Assembly (NCBI GenBank): GCA_965225945.1
Contig: CBDDBZ010000024.1
Coordinates: forward strand, 75,672-139,671
Direction of reading: 5' to 3'
DNA length: 64,000 nucleotides
Source of the DNA: Alphaproteobacteria bacterium
Lineage (GTDB): Bacteria; Pseudomonadota; Alphaproteobacteria; GCA-2731375
This document shows positions 4,449 to 61,402 of the stretch, piece by piece. Made by a program: the position numbers and the translations under genes. The stretch's first letter is position 1. Every line of letters begins with the position of its first letter. The notes under the pieces are model-generated. The model was not told the DNA's origin. It was given only the letters and a program-made list of their open reading frames with translations, and made no database searches.

Positions 4449-4527
4449 CCGACATCCCCCCAGTGACTGTCGGTTCCGACCATCAAAGTAGCCATTCGGG
4501 CCCTCGATGGCAATTCCGAGGCCGATG
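4449..4527 (-). mobile_element. IS1380-family right-end remnant
   Basis: About 80 bp highly similar to 17964-18041, ending GGGGATGTCGG on minus. Confidence 0.55.
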
Positions 4528-4612
4528 AGCAGCTTGAAGACCATGGCGAGCGCCGTCTTGCGGCCGAGGCAGCCCTTGGTCTTTTCGGTCCTGAGTCGCA
4601 GCGTGGGAAAAG
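4528..4612 (-). pseudogene. IS256-family transposase C-terminal fragment
   Basis: TLRLRTEKTKGCLGRKTALAMVFKL resembles the IS256 transposase C-terminus. Confidence 0.6.
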
Positions 4613-4661
4613 GCGCAGCGTGGGAAAAGATCGCGGTAGGGACATGAGTTACCCCACGCCC

Positions 4662-5315
4662 TTCGCCGTAGGGACGCGGGTTACCCCGCGCCCCCGGCAC
4701 AAAACCCGGCGTGCGGAACTACCGCACCGGGCTTCCACCTCGGATGTTTGACGGCAAAGCAACTTGCCGTACACGCTCCAGCCCCTGGGTCACGCTTACC
4801 CGGCTCGGTGTCCGGTACGTATCGGGTTGAACCATGTTCTCCTCGGCGCCTCCCCTTGGCTCCACCAACTCCGCCGTCGATTGTTCGACTTTGTTCGCCG
4901 GCTTCACGGCTACTATGGGAGGCTCAGACTTCTGGCGGCCGTTCATCGCCGGCGACGCCCCCTTGGGGCTTCCCAGCACGACCCGAGCCCACCAAGCGGT
5001 CTCGGGTAGCCACCAGATCTCCCGGTTCCCTGACAAAGTGCGTATGCGCATGCCTGGGGTCTTGGACCACGCCGGGCCGGCAAACCGCTCGCGCTAACGC
5101 GGTGCGCCATGTTGTCTTCCCCATAACGGGAGAGGGTCGACACCCGGGACGACAGCTGTTTCACGGCTCGATATCCCAGCCTACGCACACCCCTACCGAC
5201 GCTTCGCCGACACCCTCGCGGATGCCAACGCACGGCTCGGAGGCCGATGTGGTTCGCTACTCCTTCATCGCAGAGGACTTGCACCTCCAACACCTTGCCG
5301 GTTTTTCCGGCGCAC
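4662..5315 (-). ncRNA. ORF-less (internally deleted) group II intron B, 654 nt
   Basis: 5' GTGCGCCGG at 5315. RT start (MNGRQKSE...GLERVRQVA) is fused directly to the RT end, D5 GAAGCCCGGTGCGGTAGTTCCGCACGCCGGG and D6 ending CCTACGGCGAA. Confidence 0.85.
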
Positions 5316-5321
5316 CCCGCA

Positions 5322-7240
5322 GTTACGGTAGGAATGCGCATTGCTGCGCACCCCCCGCGCAGATCCGGACGTGGTCGTTGAACCATCCGGCTCCTACCTC
5401 GGGTGCTTGACGGCAAACCGCTGGTCCGGCCATGGGTGGCGGATGGAGGCGCGTGGCCACAGGATTTCGGTCATGCGCTCCAGTCGCTTCCAACTAAATC
5501 GGGCTCGCTGGGACCGGCGGCGTAGCGCCCGCATCCACCGGCGTTGCAGCCTGCGGAGGAACGCACGGATGAACCGGCCTGACCCTGGGACGGCAAAGTA
5601 GTTGAGCCAGCCATTGCAGACTCGCCCCAGCCACCTACCAACTTCCCAGATGTCGTGGTGCCAGCGCTTGCGGAGCACCTCGTCGATGCGCGCCAGGGTC
5701 CTGTTGACCCGTTTGGCGACCGGTTTGCGACCAAGCCGAAAGCGTCCTCTCAGGGTCGTCGTGCAATAGTGCGTGAGGCCCAGAAAGTCGAAAGTCTCCG
5801 GCTTGCCCACCCCGCGCTGGCGCCGGTTCAAATCCGCGAACCGGCCAAACTCCACGAGGCGGGTCTTGTCCTGGTGGAGGCTGAGACCGAACCGGGCCAG
5901 CCTCTCCCGAACGTCGCGGAGGTACCGCTCCGCATCCCGCTTGTGTTGGAACCCGACAACGATATCGTCAGCGTAACGGACGATGATCGCTTCGCCATCC
6001 GGGACGTTCGGGCGCCATTTCTTGTGGAACCACAAGTCGAGCACGTAATGCAGGAACACGTTCGCCAAGACGGGGGAGACTATTGCCCCCTGCGGCGTGC
6101 CCATACCCGTATCTGCCCATGACCCACTCTCTATGACGCCGGCGTTCAGCCATTTCCGGATCAGACGGATGACCCGCCTGTCTCCGATGCGGTGCTCTAG
6201 GAACGTGATCAACCAATCCCGCGGGATCGTGTCGAAGTACGCCCGGAGGTCTGCATCGACTATCCAGCTGACCTTGCGCCGTTCTATCCCGAAGGCCAGG
6301 GCATCGAGCGCATCGTGCGCCCCCCGCCCCGGTCGGAACCCGTAGCTGAAGCCAAGAAACACCACCTCGTAGATCGGTGTCAGGATCACATCCACAACCG
6401 CCTTCTGGACGACCTTGTCCTCCAGCGCCGCGATCCCGAGCGGTCGTGTCCCCCCGTCCGGCTTGGGTATCTCTACCCGCCGAACCGGCGGCGCCCGGTA
6501 CGCTCCCCCTCTGTGCAGGCGCCGGTGCAGGTCGAGCAGGCGCTCATCCAGACCCTCGCCGTACATGTCCCACGTAACGCCGTCGACACCGGCTGCTGCG
6601 TCCTTCTTCAATGCGAAGTAGGCCGCACCGAGCGCGTCCGGCGTAATGTGGTGGAAGAGCGCAGTGAGACGTTCCTTCGGGTTTCTCTCTGCAGCTTTCC
6701 GTATCCGGGCCGCCGCCTGTGGCACGCTTACCCGACACTGTGTTCGGCGCGTGCTTTGGCAATCCGGATTCCCCTTGGTTGAGGCCCTTTCCTCCGGCGA
6801 CTCCGCAGAAGCTCGCGCTCCCTTGTTCGCCGCCCTCACAGGTCGTACGGCCTCATCCGACTTCTTCAAACCGTTCATCATAGGCTTCGGTTTTCTCCAT
6901 TCCCTACGCGGCCCCTTTACGACAACCGGGGCAGTTTGAAGACCTCCCAGGGTCCCAACAGAAGGCGTGCGAACGTGCATGGGTTCTCTGACACCGCGGG
7001 GCTCGCCGACATCTCACCAAAACGACGCCTGCGATATTGCCTTCGACCGATCTGAAAGCCTCGGCACCCCGGACCATCGCTTTTACGGTGCTCAATAGCC
7101 CTGCCCATCCATGCCGCTACCGACGCTTCGCCTGCCCCCTCACGGGAGCCAACGCACGGCTCGCGGAGAAACGTGGTTCGGTTACTCCTTCGTTCCGGGG
7201 GACTTGCACCCCCTACCTTCTGCCAGTTCGCCTGGCGCAC
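5322..7240 (-). mobile_element. Group II intron C (class E-like), apparently intact
   Basis: 5' GTGCGCCAGG at 7240; D5 GAGCCGGATGGTTCAACGACCACGTCCGGATC; 3' CCTACCGTAAC at 5322. Confidence 0.92.
5394..6881 (-). CDS. ltrA: Group II intron reverse transcriptase/maturase, no endonuclease domain
   Basis: IPKPDG..RPLGI, SYGFRPGR, GTPQG, RYADD, FDFLG. Confidence 0.95.
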   Translation of the reverse strand: MMNGLKKSDEAVRPVRAANKGARASAESPEERASTKGNPDCQSTRRTQCRVSVPQAAARIRKAAERNPKERLTALFHHITPDALGAAYFALKKDAAAGVDGVTWDMYGEGLDERLLDLHRRLHRGGAYRAPPVRRVEIPKPDGGTRPLGIAALEDKVVQKAVVDVILTPIYEVVFLGFSYGFRPGRGAHDALDALAFGIERRKVSWIVDADLRAYFDTIPRDWLITFLEHRIGDRRVIRLIRKWLNAGVIESGSWADTGMGTPQGAIVSPVLANVFLHYVLDLWFHKKWRPNVPDGEAIIVRYADDIVVGFQHKRDAERYLRDVRERLARFGLSLHQDKTRLVEFGRFADLNRRQRGVGKPETFDFLGLTHYCTTTLRGRFRLGRKPVAKRVNRTLARIDEVLRKRWHHDIWEVGRWLGRVCNGWLNYFAVPGSGRFIRAFLRRLQRRWMRALRRRSQRARFSWKRLERMTEILWPRASIRHPWPDQRFAVKHPR

Positions 7241-7543
7241 CAGATCCCGGCGTGCACTGCTAATGCACCGGGCTCCTGCCTCGGGTATTTGACGTAGAAG
7301 CGTTTCGACGGCCAGGGATGGAGGATCGTCACTGGCGGAAGCCAGCGCTCGACCAGCTTGGCAAAGACCTTCCAGGTCGTGCGGTCGTTCTGGCTGCGGC
7401 GCCGGAGCGCTTTCAGCCATAGAACGAAACCGCTTTCAGCGGTAGTTCGTGGTGCCGGGCGGTGAGGTCGGTGGCGTAACGGATGGGTCGATCCTGTGTT
7501 GAGGTTTGGAGTTCCGAAGCTCACGCAACACGGGAGCAGACCC

Positions 7544-8449
7544 ATGACCGATAGTGACAAGACCATCAGCCCGCTGCGCCAGCGCATGATCGACGACATG
7601 GTGCTTCGCGGCTTCAGTGCCAACACGCAGCGCGGCTACATCAGTGCGGTGGCCGGCTTTTCCGACTTTCTCGCACGCTCTCCGGATCGGGCGGAGGCGG
7701 AGGATCTCAGGCGCTATCAAGTGCATATGCGCAAAGCAGGCGCATCGGCGACGACGATGAACGCGGCGGTCTCGGCATTGCGGTTCTTCTTCGGCGTCAC
7801 GCTCGGCCGAGGCGACGCCGAGATCGGCATGACGACGGTGGCAATGCCGCGCAAGCTGCCGGTGATCCTGAGCGTCGAGGAAATGGCGCGGCTTCTCGAT
7901 GCCGCCCCCGGTCCCAAATACAAGGCGGCCTTTTCGCTGGCCTATGGCGCCGGCCTGCGCGCTTCGGAGGTGGTCCATCTCAAGGTCCCGGACATCGACA
8001 GCAACCGCAAGACGCTTCGCATCGAGCAAGGTAAGGGCCGCCGAGATCGCTACGCCATGCTCTCGGATCGCGCCGTCGAGCAGCTCAGGGTCTGGTGGTT
8101 GCTTGGCCGCGCCCGCGGCGTGATGCTGCCCGGCGGTTGGCTGTTTCCAGGCCAGAACCCGGTCAACCCGTTGACCACCCGCCAGCTCCGTCGCGCCCTC
8201 GATGGCGCCAAGGCGGGGGCGGGGATCGAGAAGCGGATCTCGCTTCACACGCTGCGCCACTGCTTCGCCACCCATCTCCTCGAACAGGGCGTCGACATCC
8301 GCGTGATCCAGGTTCTACTGGGGCACAAGAAGCTGGAGACCACGGCTCACTACACCCAGGTCGCCAGCACCACCTTGCGGCGCGCCAAGAGCCCACTGGA
8401 CCTGCTCGAGCCGCCGACGCCCAAGACCAAGCGCAAGCCGCCGAAGTGA
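7544..8449 (+). CDS. Tyrosine recombinase/integrase of the IS91-like element
   Basis: GLRASE, GKG, HTLRHCFATHLLE, LLGHK...Y. Confidence 0.95.
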   Translation: MTDSDKTISPLRQRMIDDMVLRGFSANTQRGYISAVAGFSDFLARSPDRAEAEDLRRYQVHMRKAGASATTMNAAVSALRFFFGVTLGRGDAEIGMTTVAMPRKLPVILSVEEMARLLDAAPGPKYKAAFSLAYGAGLRASEVVHLKVPDIDSNRKTLRIEQGKGRRDRYAMLSDRAVEQLRVWWLLGRARGVMLPGGWLFPGQNPVNPLTTRQLRRALDGAKAGAGIEKRISLHTLRHCFATHLLEQGVDIRVIQVLLGHKKLETTAHYTQVASTTLRRAKSPLDLLEPPTPKTKRKPPK

Positions 8450-8462
8450 GCCGGCGGCCTCG

Positions 8463-9677
8463 GTGCCGCGTCCCGCGCTCGAGGTCCAGGACATCTTCCG
8501 CGACCACGGGCCCGGCTTCCGTCGGGCCCGGGCCGGTCGTCTGAGCCTCGGCCAACTGAAGGTCATGTCGGCGATCGAGTGTTGCCGCACCGCCGCGCTC
8601 GGCGGTCATGTCGCGGCCTGCGAGGACTGCGGGCAGAACCACATCGCCTACAATTCCTGTCGCAACCGCCATTGTCCCAAATGCCAAGGCCAGGTCGCGC
8701 GCGAATGGCTGGCGGCGCGAGAGGCCGAACTGCTCTCCGTCCCCTACTACCATCTCGTCTTCACCCTGCCAGCGGCGATCGCCGACATCGCCTATCAGAA
8801 CAAGTCGGTGATCTACGATATCCTGTTCAAGGCGAGCGCCGAGACCATGCTCACCATCGCCGCCGATCCCAAGCATCTCGGCGCCAAGATCGGCATCACC
8901 GCCGTGCTCCACACCTGGGGCTCGGCCATGACCCACCATCCCCACATCCACATGATCGTGCCGGGTGGCGGAATCTCACCTGACGGTAGCAGTTGGATCT
9001 CTTGCCGGCCCGGCTTCTTCCTGCCCGTCCGCGTGCTCTCGCGCCTCTTCCGCCGCCTCTTCATCGAGAAGCTCCTCGCCGCCCACGAGGCAGGGCGCCT
9101 GAAGTTCTTCACCGACCACACCAGCCTCGCCGAGCCGGCGGCCTTCCGTGTCTTCCTCGCACCGATGCGCAAACAAGAATGGGTCGTCTACGCCAAGCCG
9201 CCCTTCGGCGGACCAGAGGCCGTGCTCGCCTATCTCTCCCGCTACACCCACCGTGTCGCCATCTCGAACAGCCGCCTGGTCAGCTGCGACAGCCAAGGCG
9301 TCATCTTCAAGTACAAGGACTACCGGCGCAAAGGACGCGAGCGCTACAAGACCTTGCCCCTGGCCGTGCCCGAGTTCATCCGCCGCTTCCTCCTCCATGT
9401 CCTGCCCTCGGGCTTTCACCGCATCCGCCATTACGGCCTCTTCGCCAACGGCGGTCGCACCCGCAACATCTCCCTTGCCCGCGAACTGCTTGCCATGCCG
9501 GCACCGGAGAGTGAGGCCGACGATGCCGCGAGTGACGATGATACCGAACCGCCGTCCCTCTCAGAGCCCTGCCCGCAGTGCGGCGGCCGTATGATCGTCA
9601 TCGAGCGCTTCGAGGCCGGCGCCCAACCACGCGCCCCGCCCCGTGCACGGCCCCTGGCCAGGGCCACGGCAGCATGA
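8463..9677 (+). CDS. IS91-family (Y2 HUH) transposase
   Basis: SCRNRHCPKC, HTWG, HPHIH, YLSRY. Confidence 0.95.
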   Translation: MPRPALEVQDIFRDHGPGFRRARAGRLSLGQLKVMSAIECCRTAALGGHVAACEDCGQNHIAYNSCRNRHCPKCQGQVAREWLAAREAELLSVPYYHLVFTLPAAIADIAYQNKSVIYDILFKASAETMLTIAADPKHLGAKIGITAVLHTWGSAMTHHPHIHMIVPGGGISPDGSSWISCRPGFFLPVRVLSRLFRRLFIEKLLAAHEAGRLKFFTDHTSLAEPAAFRVFLAPMRKQEWVVYAKPPFGGPEAVLAYLSRYTHRVAISNSRLVSCDSQGVIFKYKDYRRKGRERYKTLPLAVPEFIRRFLLHVLPSGFHRIRHYGLFANGGRTRNISLARELLAMPAPESEADDAASDDDTEPPSLSEPCPQCGGRMIVIERFEAGAQPRAPPRARPLARATAA

Positions 9678-10632
9678 CCGACACCGCTTCGAATAACGCT
9701 ATTGCCGCCGCTCACCCGCGGCCACGATCCCGCTCGCCGCAACACCATCGAGCGCGCAGGGAACCACCTGCGAGACCCGCCGGCATCGACCCGAAGTCGC
9801 CATCAAACCACCCTGCCGGTGTCGTCGCCAATCAGATCCGAGCCATCCAGCAGCGCCGGCCACCCGAGAAAGCTGGCCCGCCGCTCGCAAATCCCCATAG
9901 ACCGAGCGTGCCGCACCGCCGAGCCTAGTCCTGCCCGCGGTTTCCTCCCTTAAGCGTTGTCCGACACCTGCCGATCCAGTCCGCCGGATGCAACCCCTGC
10001 GCCTCGGCAGGTGTCCGACAACGCTTAACAGAACCGGGCGACCTGATAGCGGAAGGCATTCAGGGCCGGAGCGTTGGTCGGCACGGCGAAGTACGCGAAG
10101 TAGCCTCGCACCACCGATGCCAGCCAGCGGCCCTGCTCGGCGATTGGCTGATGCCGTCGCCGGAGGAGTTCGCGCTTGATCTCCCCGAGCTTCGCCCCCA
10201 TGCGCTTACGCCGCGTCTTGCGTCGCAGTTGGAACCGTCCCTTCCGGTCCTTCGCGCAGATGTGCGTGAAGCCCAGGAAGTCGAACGTCTCCGGCTTGCC
10301 GTCGCCTCGGCCCTTCCGACTTTTCGCGGCGTGCCGCCCAAACTCGATGAGCCGGGTTTTCTCCGCGAACAGCGCGAGGCCGAAAGCCCGCAAGCGTTCC
10401 TCCAATGCCGCCCGGAAGGCAAGCGCGTCTTCCCGGTACTCGAAGCCCACGACGAAGTCGTCCGCGTAGCGGACGATGACCATGTCGCAGTGGGTATGGC
10501 GCCGACGCCATTGGTGCGCCCACAAGTCCAGGACATAGTGCAGGTAGACGTTGGAGAGCAGCGGTGAGAGCACCGCGCCCTGTGGCGTCCCCTGCTCCGG
10601 GACCGTGAGTTTGCCATCTTGCATAATGCCGG

Positions 10633-12091
10633 CTTCTCTATCGCGTCCTCGGTCAAGCCCTTTCTGGTTACGTCATGCCATATTCCTTCTTCACGTCGTT
10701 CCGCACTGGCGGATGTTGCCGCACGGGGCTCTTGCTTCTCTTCGAGGTTGGCGCGTGGCCACCTCATGATGGGATCAGAGGATGAGGCGGTTCAATCTTT
10801 CGCGCGTCCTTGCCGCCGGTCAGCGGCAGGGTCTACCGACATTACGAACTCACCCCACCCGTCGTCCCCGTGAGGACATCTCTCTGCCTAAGCAGAACTC
10901 GTTGATCTCCTTGTCAGTACAGTCGAAGGTTCAATCCGCCTTGACGGCGTCAGCAGGGCCGTTGCTCCAGCGGAACTCGGTGCCGTCGACCCACATGCGG
11001 TGCAGAACTACGGCCAGGCGCCTCGCGACGGCGACGATGGCACGGCGCATGCCACGTCGCTGGGCCACTCGCATGCCCCACGCCTTCAGCCAGGACCATT
11101 TCCGGCCGTGGGTGAGGAGGGACTGCGCGGCCTCGTACAGCATCGTGCGGAGCATGCTGTCGCCGCACTTGGACACGCAACCATCATAGTCGATCTCGCC
11201 GGACTGGAAGCGCTTCGGCGTCAGGCCGACATGCGCGCCGACCGCCCTGGAGTGAACGAAGCGCTGCGGCTGATCGATGGTAGCCCGGTAGGTCAGCGCG
11301 ACGACCACGCCGACGCCGGGTGCCGTCATGAGCCGTCGGCAGACCGGGTCATGGCGGACCGTGTCGAGCACCATTTTGTGGAGGACCGCGAATTGCTGGC
11401 GCATCACTCGCCGGACGGTGAGCAGCGGTTCCACAATAGCGGCCAGCTTCGGAAAGTCTTCGACCAGCTCGCGGATCCGCGCCTCGTACCCGCGGGTGCT
11501 GACCGTGCCCACCTTGAGACCGAAGTTGCGCAGCGTCCCGCGTAGATCGTTCTCGACGTCGAGCAGTTTTCTCTGGAGCAGCTTGCGGCTGGTCAGCAGC
11601 ATCCGCTGCTCCTGGGCAACCAGGGTCTTCACATGCACCGGCTTGAACAGCCCGACCCGCATCATCTGGGCGATGCCGCGCGCATCGTTGCGGTCGCTCT
11701 TGTTGATCTGCTGCCCCTTGAGCAGTGCTTTCATGTGCCGAGTCTCGACGCAGACAACCGGCAGCCCGGCGGCGGCAAGACCGTTGACCAGCCATTGCGA
11801 GAGCGGACCGGCTTCGATCCCGATCCGGCCATAGGCCACGCCGATCGAGGTCAGCAGCGTGACGATGTAGTCCGGCTCGGTCGGCACTTTCCGCTCCAAC
11901 ACCACCTCGCCAACCTCGTCGACGACGCATACCGCCGTCTCCTTCACCGAAACATCCAGACCTACGAAATGTGCCATCGTCATCGCTCCTTCCTCGATGT
12001 TCGAGGTCAGGGCGACCCCGATTTATCGATCATGCGTGAAGGGGCTGCCATCATCCTGATATCATCAGCCACAGCCGCCGCGATATACCAT
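10633..12091 (-). mobile_element. IS110-family (IS1111-type) element, copy 1
   Basis: Near-identical to 21108-22566. Inserted at TGAAAG^CCGGCATT in the RT gene (KWLK|AGIM). Confidence 0.93.
10931..11983 (-). CDS. IS110-family DEDD recombinase
   Basis: GLDVS, IEAG, KSDRNDA, PGVG, GLTP...QSG. Confidence 0.95.
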   Translation of the reverse strand: MTMAHFVGLDVSVKETAVCVVDEVGEVVLERKVPTEPDYIVTLLTSIGVAYGRIGIEAGPLSQWLVNGLAAAGLPVVCVETRHMKALLKGQQINKSDRNDARGIAQMMRVGLFKPVHVKTLVAQEQRMLLTSRKLLQRKLLDVENDLRGTLRNFGLKVGTVSTRGYEARIRELVEDFPKLAAIVEPLLTVRRVMRQQFAVLHKMVLDTVRHDPVCRRLMTAPGVGVVVALTYRATIDQPQRFVHSRAVGAHVGLTPKRFQSGEIDYDGCVSKCGDSMLRTMLYEAAQSLLTHGRKWSWLKAWGMRVAQRRGMRRAIVAVARRLAVVLHRMWVDGTEFRWSNGPADAVKAD

Positions 12092-12901
12092 CTTTCAGCC
12101 ACTTGGCCGTAAGGCGGAGGAGACGCCGATCTCCGATCCGGTGCTCTAGGAACCCTCTCAGCCAGTTTTGGTCGGATGAGTCGAAGAAGCCGGATATATC
12201 GGCGTCCAGGATCCAGTTCACCTCGCGCTCGGTGATCGCCACCGCGAGCGCGTCCAGCGCGTCGTGCTGGTTGCGCCCCGGACGGAAGCCGTAGCTGAAC
12301 CCGAGGAAATCTTCCTCGTAAATCTGGTTCAGCACCGTGCTCACGGCCATATGGGCGATCTTGTCCTCCAGGGCCGCGATCCCCAATGCCCGCGCCGAGC
12401 CGTCCGACTTCGCGATGAATTGTCGCCGGCTCGGCAGAGCCCGGTAGCCGCCCCGATGGAGCCGCCCATGCAGGTTCGGGAGACGCTGCTCCAGATCCTG
12501 GCCGTACTCTTGCCACGTCATGTCGTCCACTCCGGGCGCCGCGTCGCGCTTCAGCGCCAGGTAGGAGGCCCGAAGGAGTTCGACATCGACATGGTGCAGC
12601 AGCGCGGTGAACTTTAGTTTCCCATCTCGTCTCGCCGCTTCTCGTACGCGCTCCAGCCCCTGTGACAGGCTTTCCCGACTCCGCGTCCGGCGCCTGCGTG
12701 TCAATCGGCGTTGAACATTGACCCCCTATCGGCGTGCAATGTTGACCCCTTTGGGGATGCACGGCGGAGGTCGTACAGGTAGTCCATAGGAGGGGCCCGC
12801 GCGCGGGCCGACGCGCCCACCACGCGGCTGGCGGCGGACCGCGCGTGGGAGGTTCCTGTGGGCCCACCTGGGCGACCGGGCGGCAGGTGGATCGGTTGCC
12901 T

Positions 12902-13630
12902 TTAGGACCGATTCTTGAAGCGCCAGGAGTCGTTTCCGGTCTCGATGATCTCGCAGTGGTGCGTCAGACGATCGAGGAGCGCGGTGGTCATCTTGGCGTC
13001 GCCGAAGACGGACGGCCATTCGCCGAAGGTCAGGTTGGTGGTGACGATGATCGAGGTGCGCTCGTAGAGCCGGCTGACGAGGTGGAACAGCAGCTGGCCT
13101 CCGGTTTGGGCGAAGGGCAGGTAGCCGAGCTCGTCGAGGATGACGAGGTCGCGCCGGGCCAGCTGATCGGCGAGCCGGCCCTGGCGGCCGGCGCGGGCTT
13201 CGGCCTCGAGCCGGTTGACCAGGTCGACGACGTTGAAGAAGCGGCCCCGGGCGCCATCGCGGATGCAGGCCCGCGCGATGGCGACGGCGAGATGGCTCTT
13301 GCCGGTGCCGGTGCCGCCGATCAGCACGGCGTTGCGCTGGTTGGCCAGGAAGCCGCCGACCGCCAACTCGCGGACCAGCGGCTCGTTGACCGGGGTGTCG
13401 GTGAAGTCGAAGTCGGCCAGCTCCTTGGCCAGCGGCAGCTTGGCGCCACTCATCTGGTACTTGATGGATCGCGCCTGCTTGTCGGCGATCTCGGCCTTCA
13501 ACAGCTCGCCGATGATTCGCTGCATCGGATGCTGGCGCTTGAGGCCGTCGGCGAGCACCTCGTCGAACGCGTCGCGCATGCCGGCGAGCTTGAGTGCGGC
13601 CATCATCTCCAGGACCTCATGGCGCTCCAT
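12902..13630 (-). CDS. istB: IS21 helper ATPase
   Basis: [22 protein letters not shown]. Confidence 0.95.
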
Positions 13631-15128
13631 GGCCGACCCCCCTCAAGCGGTCGTAGCGGGTGCAATCGGCCACCGGCTCAAAGCGAAGACGCAGGTTCGC
13701 GGGCGTCGGGATCGGCGCCGTCTCGGACGGCTGGCGCCGACGATTGAGGATGTTGAGCACGACGTCGGCGCTGCACACGCCGCCAGCGAGCGCCTCGGCA
13801 CAGGCGGCCTCCACCGCCGCCAGCCCATCCGCCAGCACGGCGGTGAGGATCTCGACCATCTGCCTGTCGCCGTCGTCGTGGCCGGCGAGCCGGACGCGCA
13901 CGCGACCCAGGGCGCCGGGCAGCGCCCAGTCCTTGAACGGCGCGCCGTTACGAAGCGCACCGGGCTTCCTCGCCAGCACGGGCACGTAGTGCCACGGGTC
14001 ATAGACGGTCTGGTCGCGGCCGAAGCGCCGGGCATGCTCGGCGACGATCTCGCCGTCCTGGCGGATGACGATGCGATCGGCGTAGGCATGGACCTCGACC
14101 GGACGGCCGACGGCGCGCGCCGCCACGCTGTACTTGTTGCTGTCGAAGCGCACCAGGCAGGTCTTCGACACCGACGCCGGGACCGCGTGGAAGCCGTCGA
14201 ACGGCCCGCGATAGCCGACCAGGGACGGACGCTCGTCCTCGAACACCTGCCAGACAGTCCTGTCCTTGAACACCGGGTGGGGATGACGCCGGGCGTAGGC
14301 GACGCACTGGTCCAAGAGCCAGGCGTTGAGTTCGTCGTAGGTCTTGAAGCGCAGCCGCGGGGTGAAGAACCGACCGCGGATGATCCCGACCTGGTTCTCG
14401 ACCTGCCCCTTCTCCCATCCCGCTCCCGGCGTGCATGCTGTCGGTTCGACCAGGTAGTGGCCACACATCTGCACGAAGCGCCGGTTGAACGCGCGCTCCT
14501 TGCCGATGAGGACGGTCTGCACCGCCGTCTTCATGTTGTCGTAGATGCCTCGCCGGCAGGCACCCTGGAACAGCCGGAATGCCCGGTCGTGGGCGTCGAA
14601 CACCATCTCCTGGCTCTCGCGCGGATAAGCGCGGACGAAGAACATTCGGCTGTGGCACAGCCGGACGTGCGCGACCTTGACCTTGGTCGTCACCCCCGCC
14701 AGCACCACGTACTCGTGGCTCCAGTCGAACTGATAGGCCTCGCCCGGCGAGAACACCAACGGCACATAGGTCTGCGCCGTCGATGCCGAACGGCGCCACC
14801 GCCACGCCTTGGCGTAGCGCCGCACCGCGTCGTAGCCGCCGCCATAGCCCAGACCCTCGAGGGCTTCGGAGATCCGTAGCAGCGTCAGCCGCTCCCGCTT
14901 CGACTTGGTCTCGTTGGCCTCCAGCATCCGCTCCAGCTCGGCCGTCCACGGCCCCAGCTTCGGCATCGGCTGGACCCGCCGGTCGTAGGTGAACGCCGTC
15001 GCCTGCGAACGGATCACCTTGCGCACCGTGTTGCCCGAGACCTTCACGTCCCGCACGATCTCCTTGATCGGCTTCCCCTTGACGAAATACTCCCGCCGGA
15101 TCCGCGCTATCGTCTCCACGACCAACAT
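13617..15128 (-). CDS. istA: IS21 transposase
   Basis: QFDWS, YDNMKT, EKGQVE. Confidence 0.95.
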
Positions 15129-15749
15129 CCCCCACCACCTCGTCCGCCCAAAAACGAGGTGACTTGGACTAGCCAGGCTCAGGGGGTCAAATTTGGACGC
15201 CGATCACCCCTCAACAGGGGTCAACTTTGCACGCCGTTCCACACCTGCGTTGCTGACCCACGTTCCCCTTGGCTCCGCCCCTTCCCTCCACCGGCTCCGC
15301 CGCCTCGCACAAGGCTTTGTTCGTCGGCTTCCCAGGTACTATGGGCGAATCTGACTTCTCTCGAGCGTGCGTCATCGGCTACGGCCCTTCGGGCCTTCCC
15401 GATGCGGACCGCGCAAACGCAAGGACGGCCACTCGAGAGATCTCCCGGTTTCCGCTCAGGCGATTTCCATGCGTGCGTGGGCTCTACGACCGCGCAAGGC
15501 CCTCCGAGCGCTCGCCAATGCGCGCTCGTCGGTGTGGCCTTCCCCATAGACCCACAGGGTCGGCGCCTCGAATGCGCATTTTTTGCGGCTCAATACCCAG
15601 CCCACATGTACCCCTGTCAACGCTTCGCCTCGCCCTCGCGGACCGCAGGCGCATGACTCGGGGCCGGTGTGGATGGCTAACCCTTCACCGTACGGCTCTC
15701 TCATCCGCTACTCCTCGCCGGCGATACCGGCGCACGGGTCATTCTACTT

Positions 15750-16779
15750 CCTGATTACGCACTTCACTCAGCCGGGTTGATGTGGTACAAATCATGAACA
15801 AATGGCGGTTTTTCTGGAGGTTCACAATGCCACGCAACAACGTTCAGTTCCAGAAGGGGCTCAGCGAAGCGCGTTTTCGTGAGTTGTACGGTAGCGAGGA
15901 GCAGTGTCGCGAGGCCCTGTTCCGCTGGCGCTGGCCGGAGGGCTTCTCCTGCCCCCGATGCGGCGCCACGCGCCATTGCGAGATCGCCGGCCGCAAGCTC
16001 TACCAATGCGCCGCCTGCCGTCATCAAGTCTCGCTGACCGCCGGCACGCTCTTCCACGCGACCAAGCTGGCGCTGACCCTGTGGTTTTCGGCGATCTATC
16101 ACATGACCCAATCGAAGAAGGGGATCTCCTCCATCGAACTCGGCCGCCGGCTCGGCGTCACCCAGACCACGGCCTGGAAGATCAAGCAGAAACTGATGCA
16201 GTCCATGCTCGAGCGCGATGCCAAATTGCCGCTCACCGGGCGGGTGGAGATGGACGATGCCTACCTCGGCGGCCGGCGTTCCGGGGCCAAGCGCGGCCGA
16301 GGCGCGCCGGGCAAGACGCCGTTCGTCGCCGCCGTCCAGACCACGGCGGAGGGCCAGCCCGTGCGCATCAAGCTCCGCCGCGTCAAGGGCTTCCGCAAGA
16401 GCGAGATCGCCAAGATGGCCAAGCGCGACCTGAGCCCGCTGGCGACGGTTGTCAGCGATGGGCTCGGCTGCTTCACCGCGGTCACCGCGCAAGGCTGTGC
16501 GCACCATCCGATACCCACTGGCTCCGGACCCGGGGCCGTCGCCGTGCCCGCCTTCAAATGGGTCAACACCACCCTCGGCAACCTCAAAAACACCCTGCGC
16601 GGTACCTACCATGCGATCCGACCCAAGCATGTGCCGCGCTAACTGGCGGCGTTCCAGTACCGATACAACCGCCGCTACCGGCTCGCCGACATGATCGAAG
16701 CCCTCGGCCGCGATGCCCTGCGCACGCCGCCCATGCCATATCGGCTCCTGAAATTGGCTGAGGTTAGTGCGTAATCAGG
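15750..16779 (+). mobile_element. IS1595-family element
   Basis: IRs CCTGATTACGCACT / AGTGCGTAATCAGG; 8-bp TSD TTCTACTT. Confidence 0.92.
15827..16774 (+). pseudogene. IS1595 transposase with a nonsense codon
   Basis: In-frame TAA at 16640-16642 (KHVPR*LAAFQYRYNRR); the frame continues to 16774. Confidence 0.85.
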
Positions 16780-61328: not shown

Positions 61329-61402
61329 GCGGGCGTAGCTCAATGGCAGAGCAGAAGCTTCCCAAGCTTACGACGGGGGTTCGATTCCCCTCGTCCGCTC
61401 CA
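61329..61402 (+). tRNA. tRNA-Gly(CCC)
   Basis: GCGGGCG acceptor stem, TTCCCAA anticodon loop, GGTTCGATTCC, 3' CCA. Confidence 0.96.

Follow-up and report, generated by a model that had tools for sequence, protein, structure and literature searches.

Two group II introns nested at the D5-D6 end of a decayed, related intron in an alphaproteobacterial genome

Introduction

Group II introns that lie inside other group II introns have been described in several organisms. The closest precedent for the locus described here is Methanosarcina acetivorans, for which the published accounts, as far as they are covered here, report repeated homing of introns into group II introns with up to five nested copies (PMC4424553, PMC2882425). 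In these accounts the arrays affect no host gene, copies are lost by homologous recombination, and the nested introns offer a perpetual homing site (PMC4424553, PMC2882425). Here we analyzed a stretch of 64,000 nucleotides (nt) from an Alphaproteobacteria bacterium (GenBank assembly GCA_965225945.1, contig CBDDBZ010000024.1, positions 75,672 to 139,671 of the forward strand), the whole of which is called the window below. It contains two different group II introns, named C and B, within the 3' end of a third, related intron, the host A. As in the M. acetivorans arrays as described, repeated site-specific insertion into introns has given nested copies. The differences are that the target here is the 3' strand of the catalytic domain 5 (D5) together with the start of domain 6 (D6), that the hosts are bacterial, and that one intron also inserts into its own copies, with scars of 38 nt left behind. 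The M. acetivorans introns reportedly target intron open reading frames (ORFs), going by the title of a 2003 paper by Dai and Zimmerly.

Twintrons of Thermosynechococcus elongatus are described, in the part of the study considered here, as ORF-less introns that are moved in trans by the reverse transcriptase (RT) of a related intron, and the use of a conserved position in a different mobile intron as the insertion site was proposed as a proliferation strategy. The site lies between the first two RT start codons in D4 and leaves the outer ribozyme uninterrupted (PMC2882425). An ORF-less intron inside a related mobile intron is also found in our window; unlike here, self-nesting does not figure in the T. 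elongatus account. In plant mitochondria, a copy of one intron has entered a paralogue of that intron (Zumkeller et al., 2020, PMC7049729). This was, in the description given there, a single event at the internal position 652, with an apparently non-functional inner copy and without arrays. In the groEL gene, a second copy of a IIB1 intron enters beside the first one through a tolerated pairing between exon-binding site (EBS) and intron-binding site (IBS) (Gomes et al., 2025, PMC12584367). As reported, the two copies stand head to tail and share one 5' exon, which an EBS3 wobble allows; they are not nested inside D5-D6. For the nested introns of Trichodesmium, the target is given as D1. In the literature searched, to the extent that these sources describe them, nested-intron sites lie in the intron protein gene or in peripheral RNA domains. 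Neither bacterial homing into the D5 3' strand nor self-nesting there was found reported in this literature, the supplements of which were outside the scope.

The chloroplast of Euglena is said to offer a further likeness, since Copertino and Hallick reportedly described in 1991 twintrons whose inner intron lies within domain V of the outer intron. In both cases the catalytic 3' part of the outer intron is broken by the inner one, which must leave first. The Euglena introns differ in being degenerate organellar introns in essential genes, with splicing shown by experiment, whereas the host here is a dead bacterial retroelement.

We propose that the three introns, all of the RF02005 type, were stacked by ordinary retrohoming guided by base pairing of their exon-binding loops with the target. 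We give this reading a probability of about 0.8. The stack is real and forms a clear-cut example of a type of nesting that is already known; it does not point to a new mechanism.

Two introns in the D5-D6 end of a third

All parts of the stack lie on the minus strand. Host A extends from 15735 to 4630 and encloses, in this order, intron C, six nucleotides of its own sequence, intron B and the remainder of its own D6 (Table 1). The 5' ends were placed by reading of the sequence and by alignment of the three 5' regions. A (15735), C (7240) and B (5315) all start with GTGCG, and the 3' termini are AT, AC and AA, respectively, where the expected type is GUGYG...AY. Each intron matches the Rfam model RF02005 (group-II-D1D4-6) far above its cut-off of 49 bits, with E-values of 1e-47 to 1e-49: B at 5057-5281 (168.9 bits), C at 6982-7206 (163.7 bits) and A at 15480-15701 (168.3 bits), all on the minus strand. 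The D5-D6 model RF00029 gave matches below its cut-off of 40 bits at 5322-5395 (35.4 bits) and 4630-4736 (32.5 bits).

To restore the end of the host, C and B were removed in silico and the window positions 7300-7241, 5321-5316 and 4661-4620 were joined. The genome G017, which belongs to another genus of the same family, carries an uninterrupted end of an A-like intron (locus L026). In an alignment of the two, 87 of 96 columns are identical and no gap occurs over either insertion point; the D5 of host A alone matches the G017 counterpart at 91%. The joined sequence folds into a D5 hairpin with a two-base bulge and a D6 hairpin (-40.6 kcal/mol). The 3' ends of C and B give the same fold, and in the D6 of all three introns an A bulges out eight bases before the intron end. 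In the restored fold, C is located one base beyond the D5 helix and B five bases inside the 5' strand of D6. Removal of the inner introns restores the outer sequence exactly, as in a twintron. An earlier note, made from the DNA letters of the window, had claimed two introns inserted 6 nt apart at the D5-D6 junction of a third one; this arrangement stands, with boundaries that are exact to the base.

One detail of D5 differs among the introns. The G of the AGC triad usually forms a G-U pair. In the D5 of A (7241-7275) and of C (5360-5395) it faces an A and is left unpaired, while B has the G-U pair.

Target recognition by the exon-binding loops

The variable loop of one D1 hairpin, located with the Rfam alignment, occupies the EBS1 position in all introns compared. 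In intron C this loop reads CAGAUC and is the exact complement of GAUCUG, the end of the 5' exon. The loop of B (CCCGU) faces GCGGG and that of A (GGGUC) faces GACCC. A relative of C with 73% identity (L089) carries CAGAGU at the same place and ACUCUG at its exon end. The EBS1-IBS1 pairing is thus found at the homologous loop in four of four introns, and loop and exon covary, as both have changed between C and L089. That EBS1 should be complementary to the flanking exons had been suggested as a check in the earlier note, and such loops were found for both C and B.

Duplex energies of the loops with their own exons are -8.3 (A), -6.1 (C), -7.5 (B) and -6.7 kcal/mol (L089). For A and L089 the own exon scored better than any other in the row; C and B came within about 1 kcal/mol of the best, with test exons that overlap. 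A second element of C, GCGAU in an internal loop just 5' of the EBS1 hairpin, fits a CG(C/U) core located 3-4 nt upstream of the first target element. Its counterpart in L089 is GGG, with CCC in the exon. The target of C comprises 14-15 nt in this way, and in intron hosts both of its elements fall in the 3' strand of D5. Intron C lands at the end of D5 because its EBS1 loop pairs with GAUCUG, which ends D5 in this class of introns. As far as the sequences tell, both insertions look like genuine retrohoming.

Class C (IIC) targeting of a stem-loop was also considered for intron C, since a D5 hairpin lies directly upstream of the site. Introns of that class have no EBS2 and use a target made up of an upstream hairpin and an IBS1 of 3-4 nt. 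For C this was rejected: by eye, a 6-nt IBS1 with an upstream CG(C/T) is present at 14 of 18 insertion sites in ordinary DNA, and the matching loop covaries in L089.

Intron C and its insertion into itself

The RT frame of intron C is open over 528 codons and matches Pfam RVT_1 at 1.7e-36. The match to the maturase domain GIIM reaches 21.6 bits, below the cut-off of 23 bits. The frame stops 30 amino acids past the maturase match, so the RT has no endonuclease domain. In the plasmid protein search, the nearest RTs were those of Skermanella (57% identity) and of Klebsiella plasmids (51%); neither this search nor the literature covered gave a class (A-F, CL or ML) for these introns. The source genome (assembly G000; 39 contigs, 5.6% contamination) contains C at 15 more places, in full or in part. 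Most of these copies are 99.3-100% identical, and such near-identity at many sites argues for recent mobility. Judged by sequence identity of 93-100%, C appears to be present in at least five genomes of more than one family.

The D5 of C itself ends in the target motif, 38 nt before the intron's 3' end. In the source genome, C units follow each other at a spacing of 1881 nt, which is the full length of 1919 nt minus 38. Eight junctions of the D5 end of one C to the 5' end of another were found; we call them heads. Behind the last full copy, the final 38 nt of C are repeated in tandem; these repeats, here called tails, number 4, 2, 1, 5, 3 and 2 at six loci (17 in all). The array at contig C38:556105-562657, for example, shows three heads, one of them cut by the contig end, and three tails. 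This self-nesting of C, with 8 heads and 17 scars of 38 nt in the source genome, is new here. Heads are fewer than tails, and two loci (C34:398218 and contig C39) have tails only. The deficit fits a loss by recombination between direct repeats of 1.9 kb; a collapse in the assembly would look alike.

Two further loci show variants of the arrays. At contig C31:260175, the outermost C copy of an array starts with TTGCG instead of GTGCG, a change of the first base that should block splicing. The locus at C37:375067-378878 has an A-type D5, then one C head and a full C copy of 1931 nt, and continues into unrelated DNA without tails, B or the D6 of A; this looks like an ectopic recombination between C copies.

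The decayed host intron and a possible copying of the stack

Host A is about 11 kb long and contains genes on the opposite strand. Two further copies of it are located in the source genome, on contigs C29 and C37, in which 492 of the 498 nt of the 5' part are repeated with 98.6-100% identity. The RT gene of A is cut by three insertion sequences (Table 1), so that A is unable to supply its own RT, and the stop codon before D5 is lost. The first insertion belongs to the IS21 family (Pfam rve and Mu-transpos_C_2 in one protein, IstB_IS21 at 4.4e-74 in the other). The second is of the IS110 family (DEDD_Tnp_IS110 and Transposase_20), and the third carries an IS91-family transposase (Y2_Tnp and Zn_Tnp_IS91) and a recombinase matching Phage_integrase. 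The boundaries of the IS21 and IS91 insertions are fixed by their absence from the copies on contigs C29 and C37: the flanks of the IS21 element overlap there by 7 nt, and position 10031 joins 7419 directly. Between the RT parts 1 and 2, the copy on contig C29 has a gap of IS110 size and that on contig C37 a larger gap of 5.4 kb. The IS110 break is thus common to at least two of the three A copies, where contig C29 is judged by the size of the gap. Host A is a fossil and was judged dead. The earlier note mentions neither these insertions nor the 5' end of A at 15735.

Table 1. Features of the intron stack and of its host in the window.
Feature	Position	Strand	Remarks
IS1595-family element, left end = target of host A	15736..16642	+	transposase 15782-16642
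Host A, 5' part	15238..15735	-	GTGCG start, D1-D4 ribozyme, first RT codons; RF02005
IS21-family insertion in the A RT gene	12706..15243, ends approximate	-	IstA-like 13617-15128, IstB 12902-13630
Host A RT gene, part 1	12084..12702	-	99.7-99.8% identical in contigs C29, C37
IS110-family insertion in the A RT gene	10631..12083	-	transposase 10931-11983
Host A RT gene, part 2, YADD region	10031..10630	-	RVT_1 1e-17; 100% identical in contigs C29, C37
IS91-family transposase (8463-9677) and tyrosine recombinase (7496-8449) in the A RT gene	7420..10030	+	
Host A, end of RT gene and D5	7241..7419	-	stop codon lost; last six bases = IBS1 of C
Intron C, full length 1919 nt	5322..7240	-	RT/maturase gene 5394-6980
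Six host A bases between C and B	5316..5321	-	end of D5-D6 linker and start of D6; last five = IBS1 of B
Intron B, 654 nt, ribozyme kept, without RT ORF	4662..5315	-	RF02005
Host A, remainder of D6	4630..4661	-	bulged A eight bases from 3' end; fold

An IS1595-family element (Pfam DDE_Tnp_IS1595 and Zn_ribbon_IS1595) holds host A at its left end, five bases inwards. The 165 nt upstream of A recur at about 40 places in the source genome with 80-96% identity.

The RT gene of intron B is deleted from just past the start to the last few codons, and the remaining frame of 110 amino acids has no Pfam match. Two assembled copies of B were found, one in the window and one on contig C33 (304010-304673), both at the same position in A-type hosts. 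The second copy adjoins a C array with four tails and is followed by the D6 of A, identical in 32 of 32 bases. A third flank appears behind B and the D6 of A in a contig from a public run (X1). The two assembled B copies differ, by eye, at three positions outside a patch in D1. In this patch of the contig C33 copy, about 40 bases of C-tail sequence replace 10 bases, which may be a conversion tract or an assembly error. The same copy lacks the first 15 bases of B and the six-base spacer, and the junction shares a microhomology of three bases (304590-304700).

Outside the source genome, no sequence with more than 73% identity to B was found in 60 relatives. Plasmids contain relatives of 70-73% identity and nine records in the band of 80-90%, and none above. 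Two scans of metagenome contigs with exact patterns found none; exact patterns miss variants, which makes these scans weak evidence of rarity. A solitary D6-like segment in G017 (L031, C180:9600-9660) is 94% identical to the D6 of B. It has no adjoining ribozyme and lies 2.8 kb from the intact A-like intron end of that genome.

B may have entered A once and then been copied together with it. We also weakly favor an arrival of B before C, for which there are three slight hints. The two B copies differ at three positions, against the 99.3-100% identity of most C copies; B is present in every A copy that still has its D6; and a candidate second pairing of B, ACAG with CUGU, would need a target without C.

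The strongest alternative is that the stack arose only once and was later multiplied at the DNA level, either together with the IS1595 host element or through recombination. The repeated loci of A with B and C would then be duplicates, and only the first two insertions would be retrohoming. This fits several of the observations above. The same IS110 break is found in at least two of the three 5' copies of A, in both copies with a remaining D6 the insertion point of B is identical to the base and so is the D6 sequence, and the B copies have hardly diverged. The 3' flanks of the two B loci, like those of the A copies, have five bases in common and then differ, as expected for an intron located 5 nt from the end of an insertion sequence. 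However, DNA copying leaves C in the E-, F- and L098-type hosts of other genomes unexplained, as well as the nested heads and tails, and the upstream copies of the insertion sequence differ by up to about 20%. We regard it as a serious possibility, although with somewhat less than an even chance. It is compatible with stacking by retrohoming and not opposed to it.

Insertion of intron C in introns and in ordinary DNA

The junctions of C were surveyed in the source genome, in G002 and G037 and at 16 further loci. This gave 41 5' junctions with 28 distinct flanks of 30 nt, of which 25 were kept; two relatives with less than 90% identity (L089/L099 and L096) and one 47-nt fragment (L093) were dropped. 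Motifs were counted by eye. Of the 25 sites, seven coincide with the D5 end of an intron and 18 lie in ordinary DNA, where neither D5 nor D6 was recognized by eye and which looks like genes or spacers. The motif G(A/G)TCTG is exact at 14 of the 18 ordinary and at all 7 intronic sites, and CG(C/T) is present 3-4 nt upstream at 14 of 18 and 6 of 7, respectively. The ordinary sites come from G002 (7), one metagenome-assembled genome (MAG; 7), the source genome (3) and G037 (1). All seven readable 5' flanks of that MAG are ordinary, and G002 has 7 ordinary versus 2-3 intronic sites.

The intronic hosts in the source genome are of the A type (window and contig C37), C itself (the eight junctions) and of an E type (contig C34). 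Elsewhere they comprise an E' type (L058 in G002, L041 in G037), an F type with 70% identity to C (L056 in G002) and the host at L098. A D5-like remnant at L087 probably belongs to a further host intron. In total, this point of D5 is occupied by C in at least four genomes (the source genome, G002, G037 and one or two MAGs), both within C itself and within five or six other types of host introns. At contig C34 and at L041, L055 and L098, the D6 of the host follows directly 3' of C. A search at the level of the order gave no additional copies; its 33 genomes were those of the family search.

The use of available sites was estimated for the source genome by a motif scan, as a genome-wide scan with RF00029 gave only two weak matches and missed known C ends. 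All three intron sites outside C (A-type and E-type D5-D6) are filled. Ten intron sites are free, all of them within C copies. The motifs GGATCTG and GGGTCTG occur 2259 times in this genome, and three ordinary sites are occupied. The fuller use of intron sites could reflect a true preference or purifying selection against insertions into genes.

The earlier note had gone further and proposed that B and C belong to lineages specialized in homing to the catalytic 3' end of related introns. Such a specialization would resemble that of class C introns for terminators. The filled intron sites, the more than half of all C junctions in the source genome that are intronic, the range of host introns and genomes, and the placement of both assembled B copies in the D6 of A-type hosts would all agree with this. 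The proposal is nevertheless unlikely, as most distinct sites of C are ordinary, overall as well as in G002 and the MAG. L089, with its different EBS1, is also found at an ordinary site, even though the motif is present at the end of its own D5, and the two B copies may go back to one event. What stands is the recurrence of C at the D5 ends of several introns; the flanks speak against a specialist. Judged by them, C appears to recognize, as a generalist, a short motif which introns of its own class happen to contain; it is not a strict specialist.

Transcripts and support of the assembly

Contigs of two metatranscriptome libraries (X15, X17) cover most of C, with DNA carry-over being possible. 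One metatranscriptome contig runs from the 3' end of C into an apparent E-type D6. The only joint listed, from the public run X2, connects position 5370 to 7271 with 18 other letters in between; it is the D5 of a related intron and not a splice.

A working twintron, in which the order of splicing would serve to control the host intron or a host gene, is very improbable. The D5-D6 of A can form in principle only once both inner introns are gone, and the candidate pairing ACAG/CUGU of B would straddle the C site and impose an order. Yet the RT gene of A is cut three times and has lost its stop codon, the intron measures 11 kb with opposite-strand genes inside, its exons are the end of an insertion sequence, and the contigs contain no spliced joint. 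The earlier statement that both introns must splice before the host can fold is formally true, but since A is a fossil with a broken RT gene it is without practical consequence.

Two contigs from public runs bridge the ends of B: one of run X1 (805 nt) crosses the junction of B with the D6 of A, and one of run X2 (572 nt) crosses the 5' end of B and extends 34 letters past it. These runs may include the source sample, so their contigs are not independent support. Neither end of C is bridged by the public-run contigs under a 31-letter rule, and none of them spans the whole arrangement (4500-7500). An assembly artefact of a repeat-rich MAG, for which the fragmentation and contamination of the assembly, its four contigs ending in C arrays and the lack of a single public contig over the whole stack could be cited, is scarcely credible given base-exact junctions that restore a sequence intact in another genome, the bridging of both B ends, the presence of C at a host D5 end also in a 1-contig and a 5-contig genome, and tail arrays of 38-nt units that are shorter than any read length.

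Other features of the window

A further group II intron with another ribozyme type is located at 1179-1469 on the minus strand (RF02001, 133 bits; RF01998, 51 bits). For its RT gene, no Pfam match was obtained in the two downstream frames tried (584-1141 and 2-547). A tRNA gene at 61329-61399 on the plus strand (63.7 bits) is unrelated to the stack.

Discussion

The proposed course of events is as follows. A would have reached the left end of an IS1595-family element by homing and later lost its RT gene to the IS110 insertion, by which it may have become a neutral landing pad. Each insertion would be guided by pairing of exon-binding loops with the target and would proceed by reverse splicing and reverse transcription. 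Intron C, which is presumed to be autonomous, would read G(A/G)UCUG and CG(C/U) in the D5 3' strand with its EBS1 CAGAUC and the GCGAU loop, and its homing site would end one base beyond D5. As both target elements lie in the D5 3' strand, any intron of the class, C included, carries a homing site of C. The ORF-less B would land by means of CCCGU on the GCGGG that opens D6, six bases on from C, and would be moved by an RT supplied in trans. C may accumulate in intron sites because insertions there cost the cell nothing, and the missing C heads would have been lost by recombination.

Several points weigh against this explanation. The contigs of the RNA libraries show no spliced joint that removes C or B, and the second pairing of B (EBS2) lacks a confident identification beyond the candidate named above. 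The three A copies with C and the two with B may stem from one composite that was copied as DNA, in which case there are fewer independent hits on A than it appears. In four other genomes there are 13 full-length C copies whose 3' flank could be read (six in G002, two in G037, four in the MAG of L085 and one at L098), and not one of them has the 38-nt tail. Where they were aligned, the C copies of other genomes carry the same D5-linker sequence, so a matching site is not sufficient for self-nesting. The label "ordinary" for the 18 sites comes from reading of the flanks by eye, and the lengths of the arrays are uncertain because four contigs of the source genome end within C arrays.

A difference in the ribozyme was considered as the reason why self-nesting is seen in the source genome only. 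The ribozymes of the aligned C copies from other genomes differ from that of the window at one or a few paired positions. The stem position 241 is changed in G002 and position 208 in the MAG of L085, but both keep the pairing, and the candidate was rejected.

Stacking by retrohoming leaves room for a broader reading, according to which the loops of C read the D5 3' strand as an evolved safe-haven strategy and not by coincidence, every such intron being a cost-free and mutation-resistant homing site. We consider this doubtful at present. If it were true, C would persist and spread between genomes partly by riding resident introns, and self-nesting would ratchet up its copy number, with the 38-nt scars as a record of earlier events.

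Two things are notable beyond the known kind of nesting: the choice of D5 itself and of the base of the branch-point helix as target, and the self-nesting of C in one genome. For genome annotation this means that runs of 38-nt D6 tails and repeat units of 1881 nt should be taken as nested introns and not as tandem duplications. If the preference of C for intron sites is real, and not a neutral accumulation, these introns would offer a testable model of how a retroelement finds harmless sites that cannot mutate away. It would then also help to explain the origin of ribozyme fragments and short D6 repeats in genomes.

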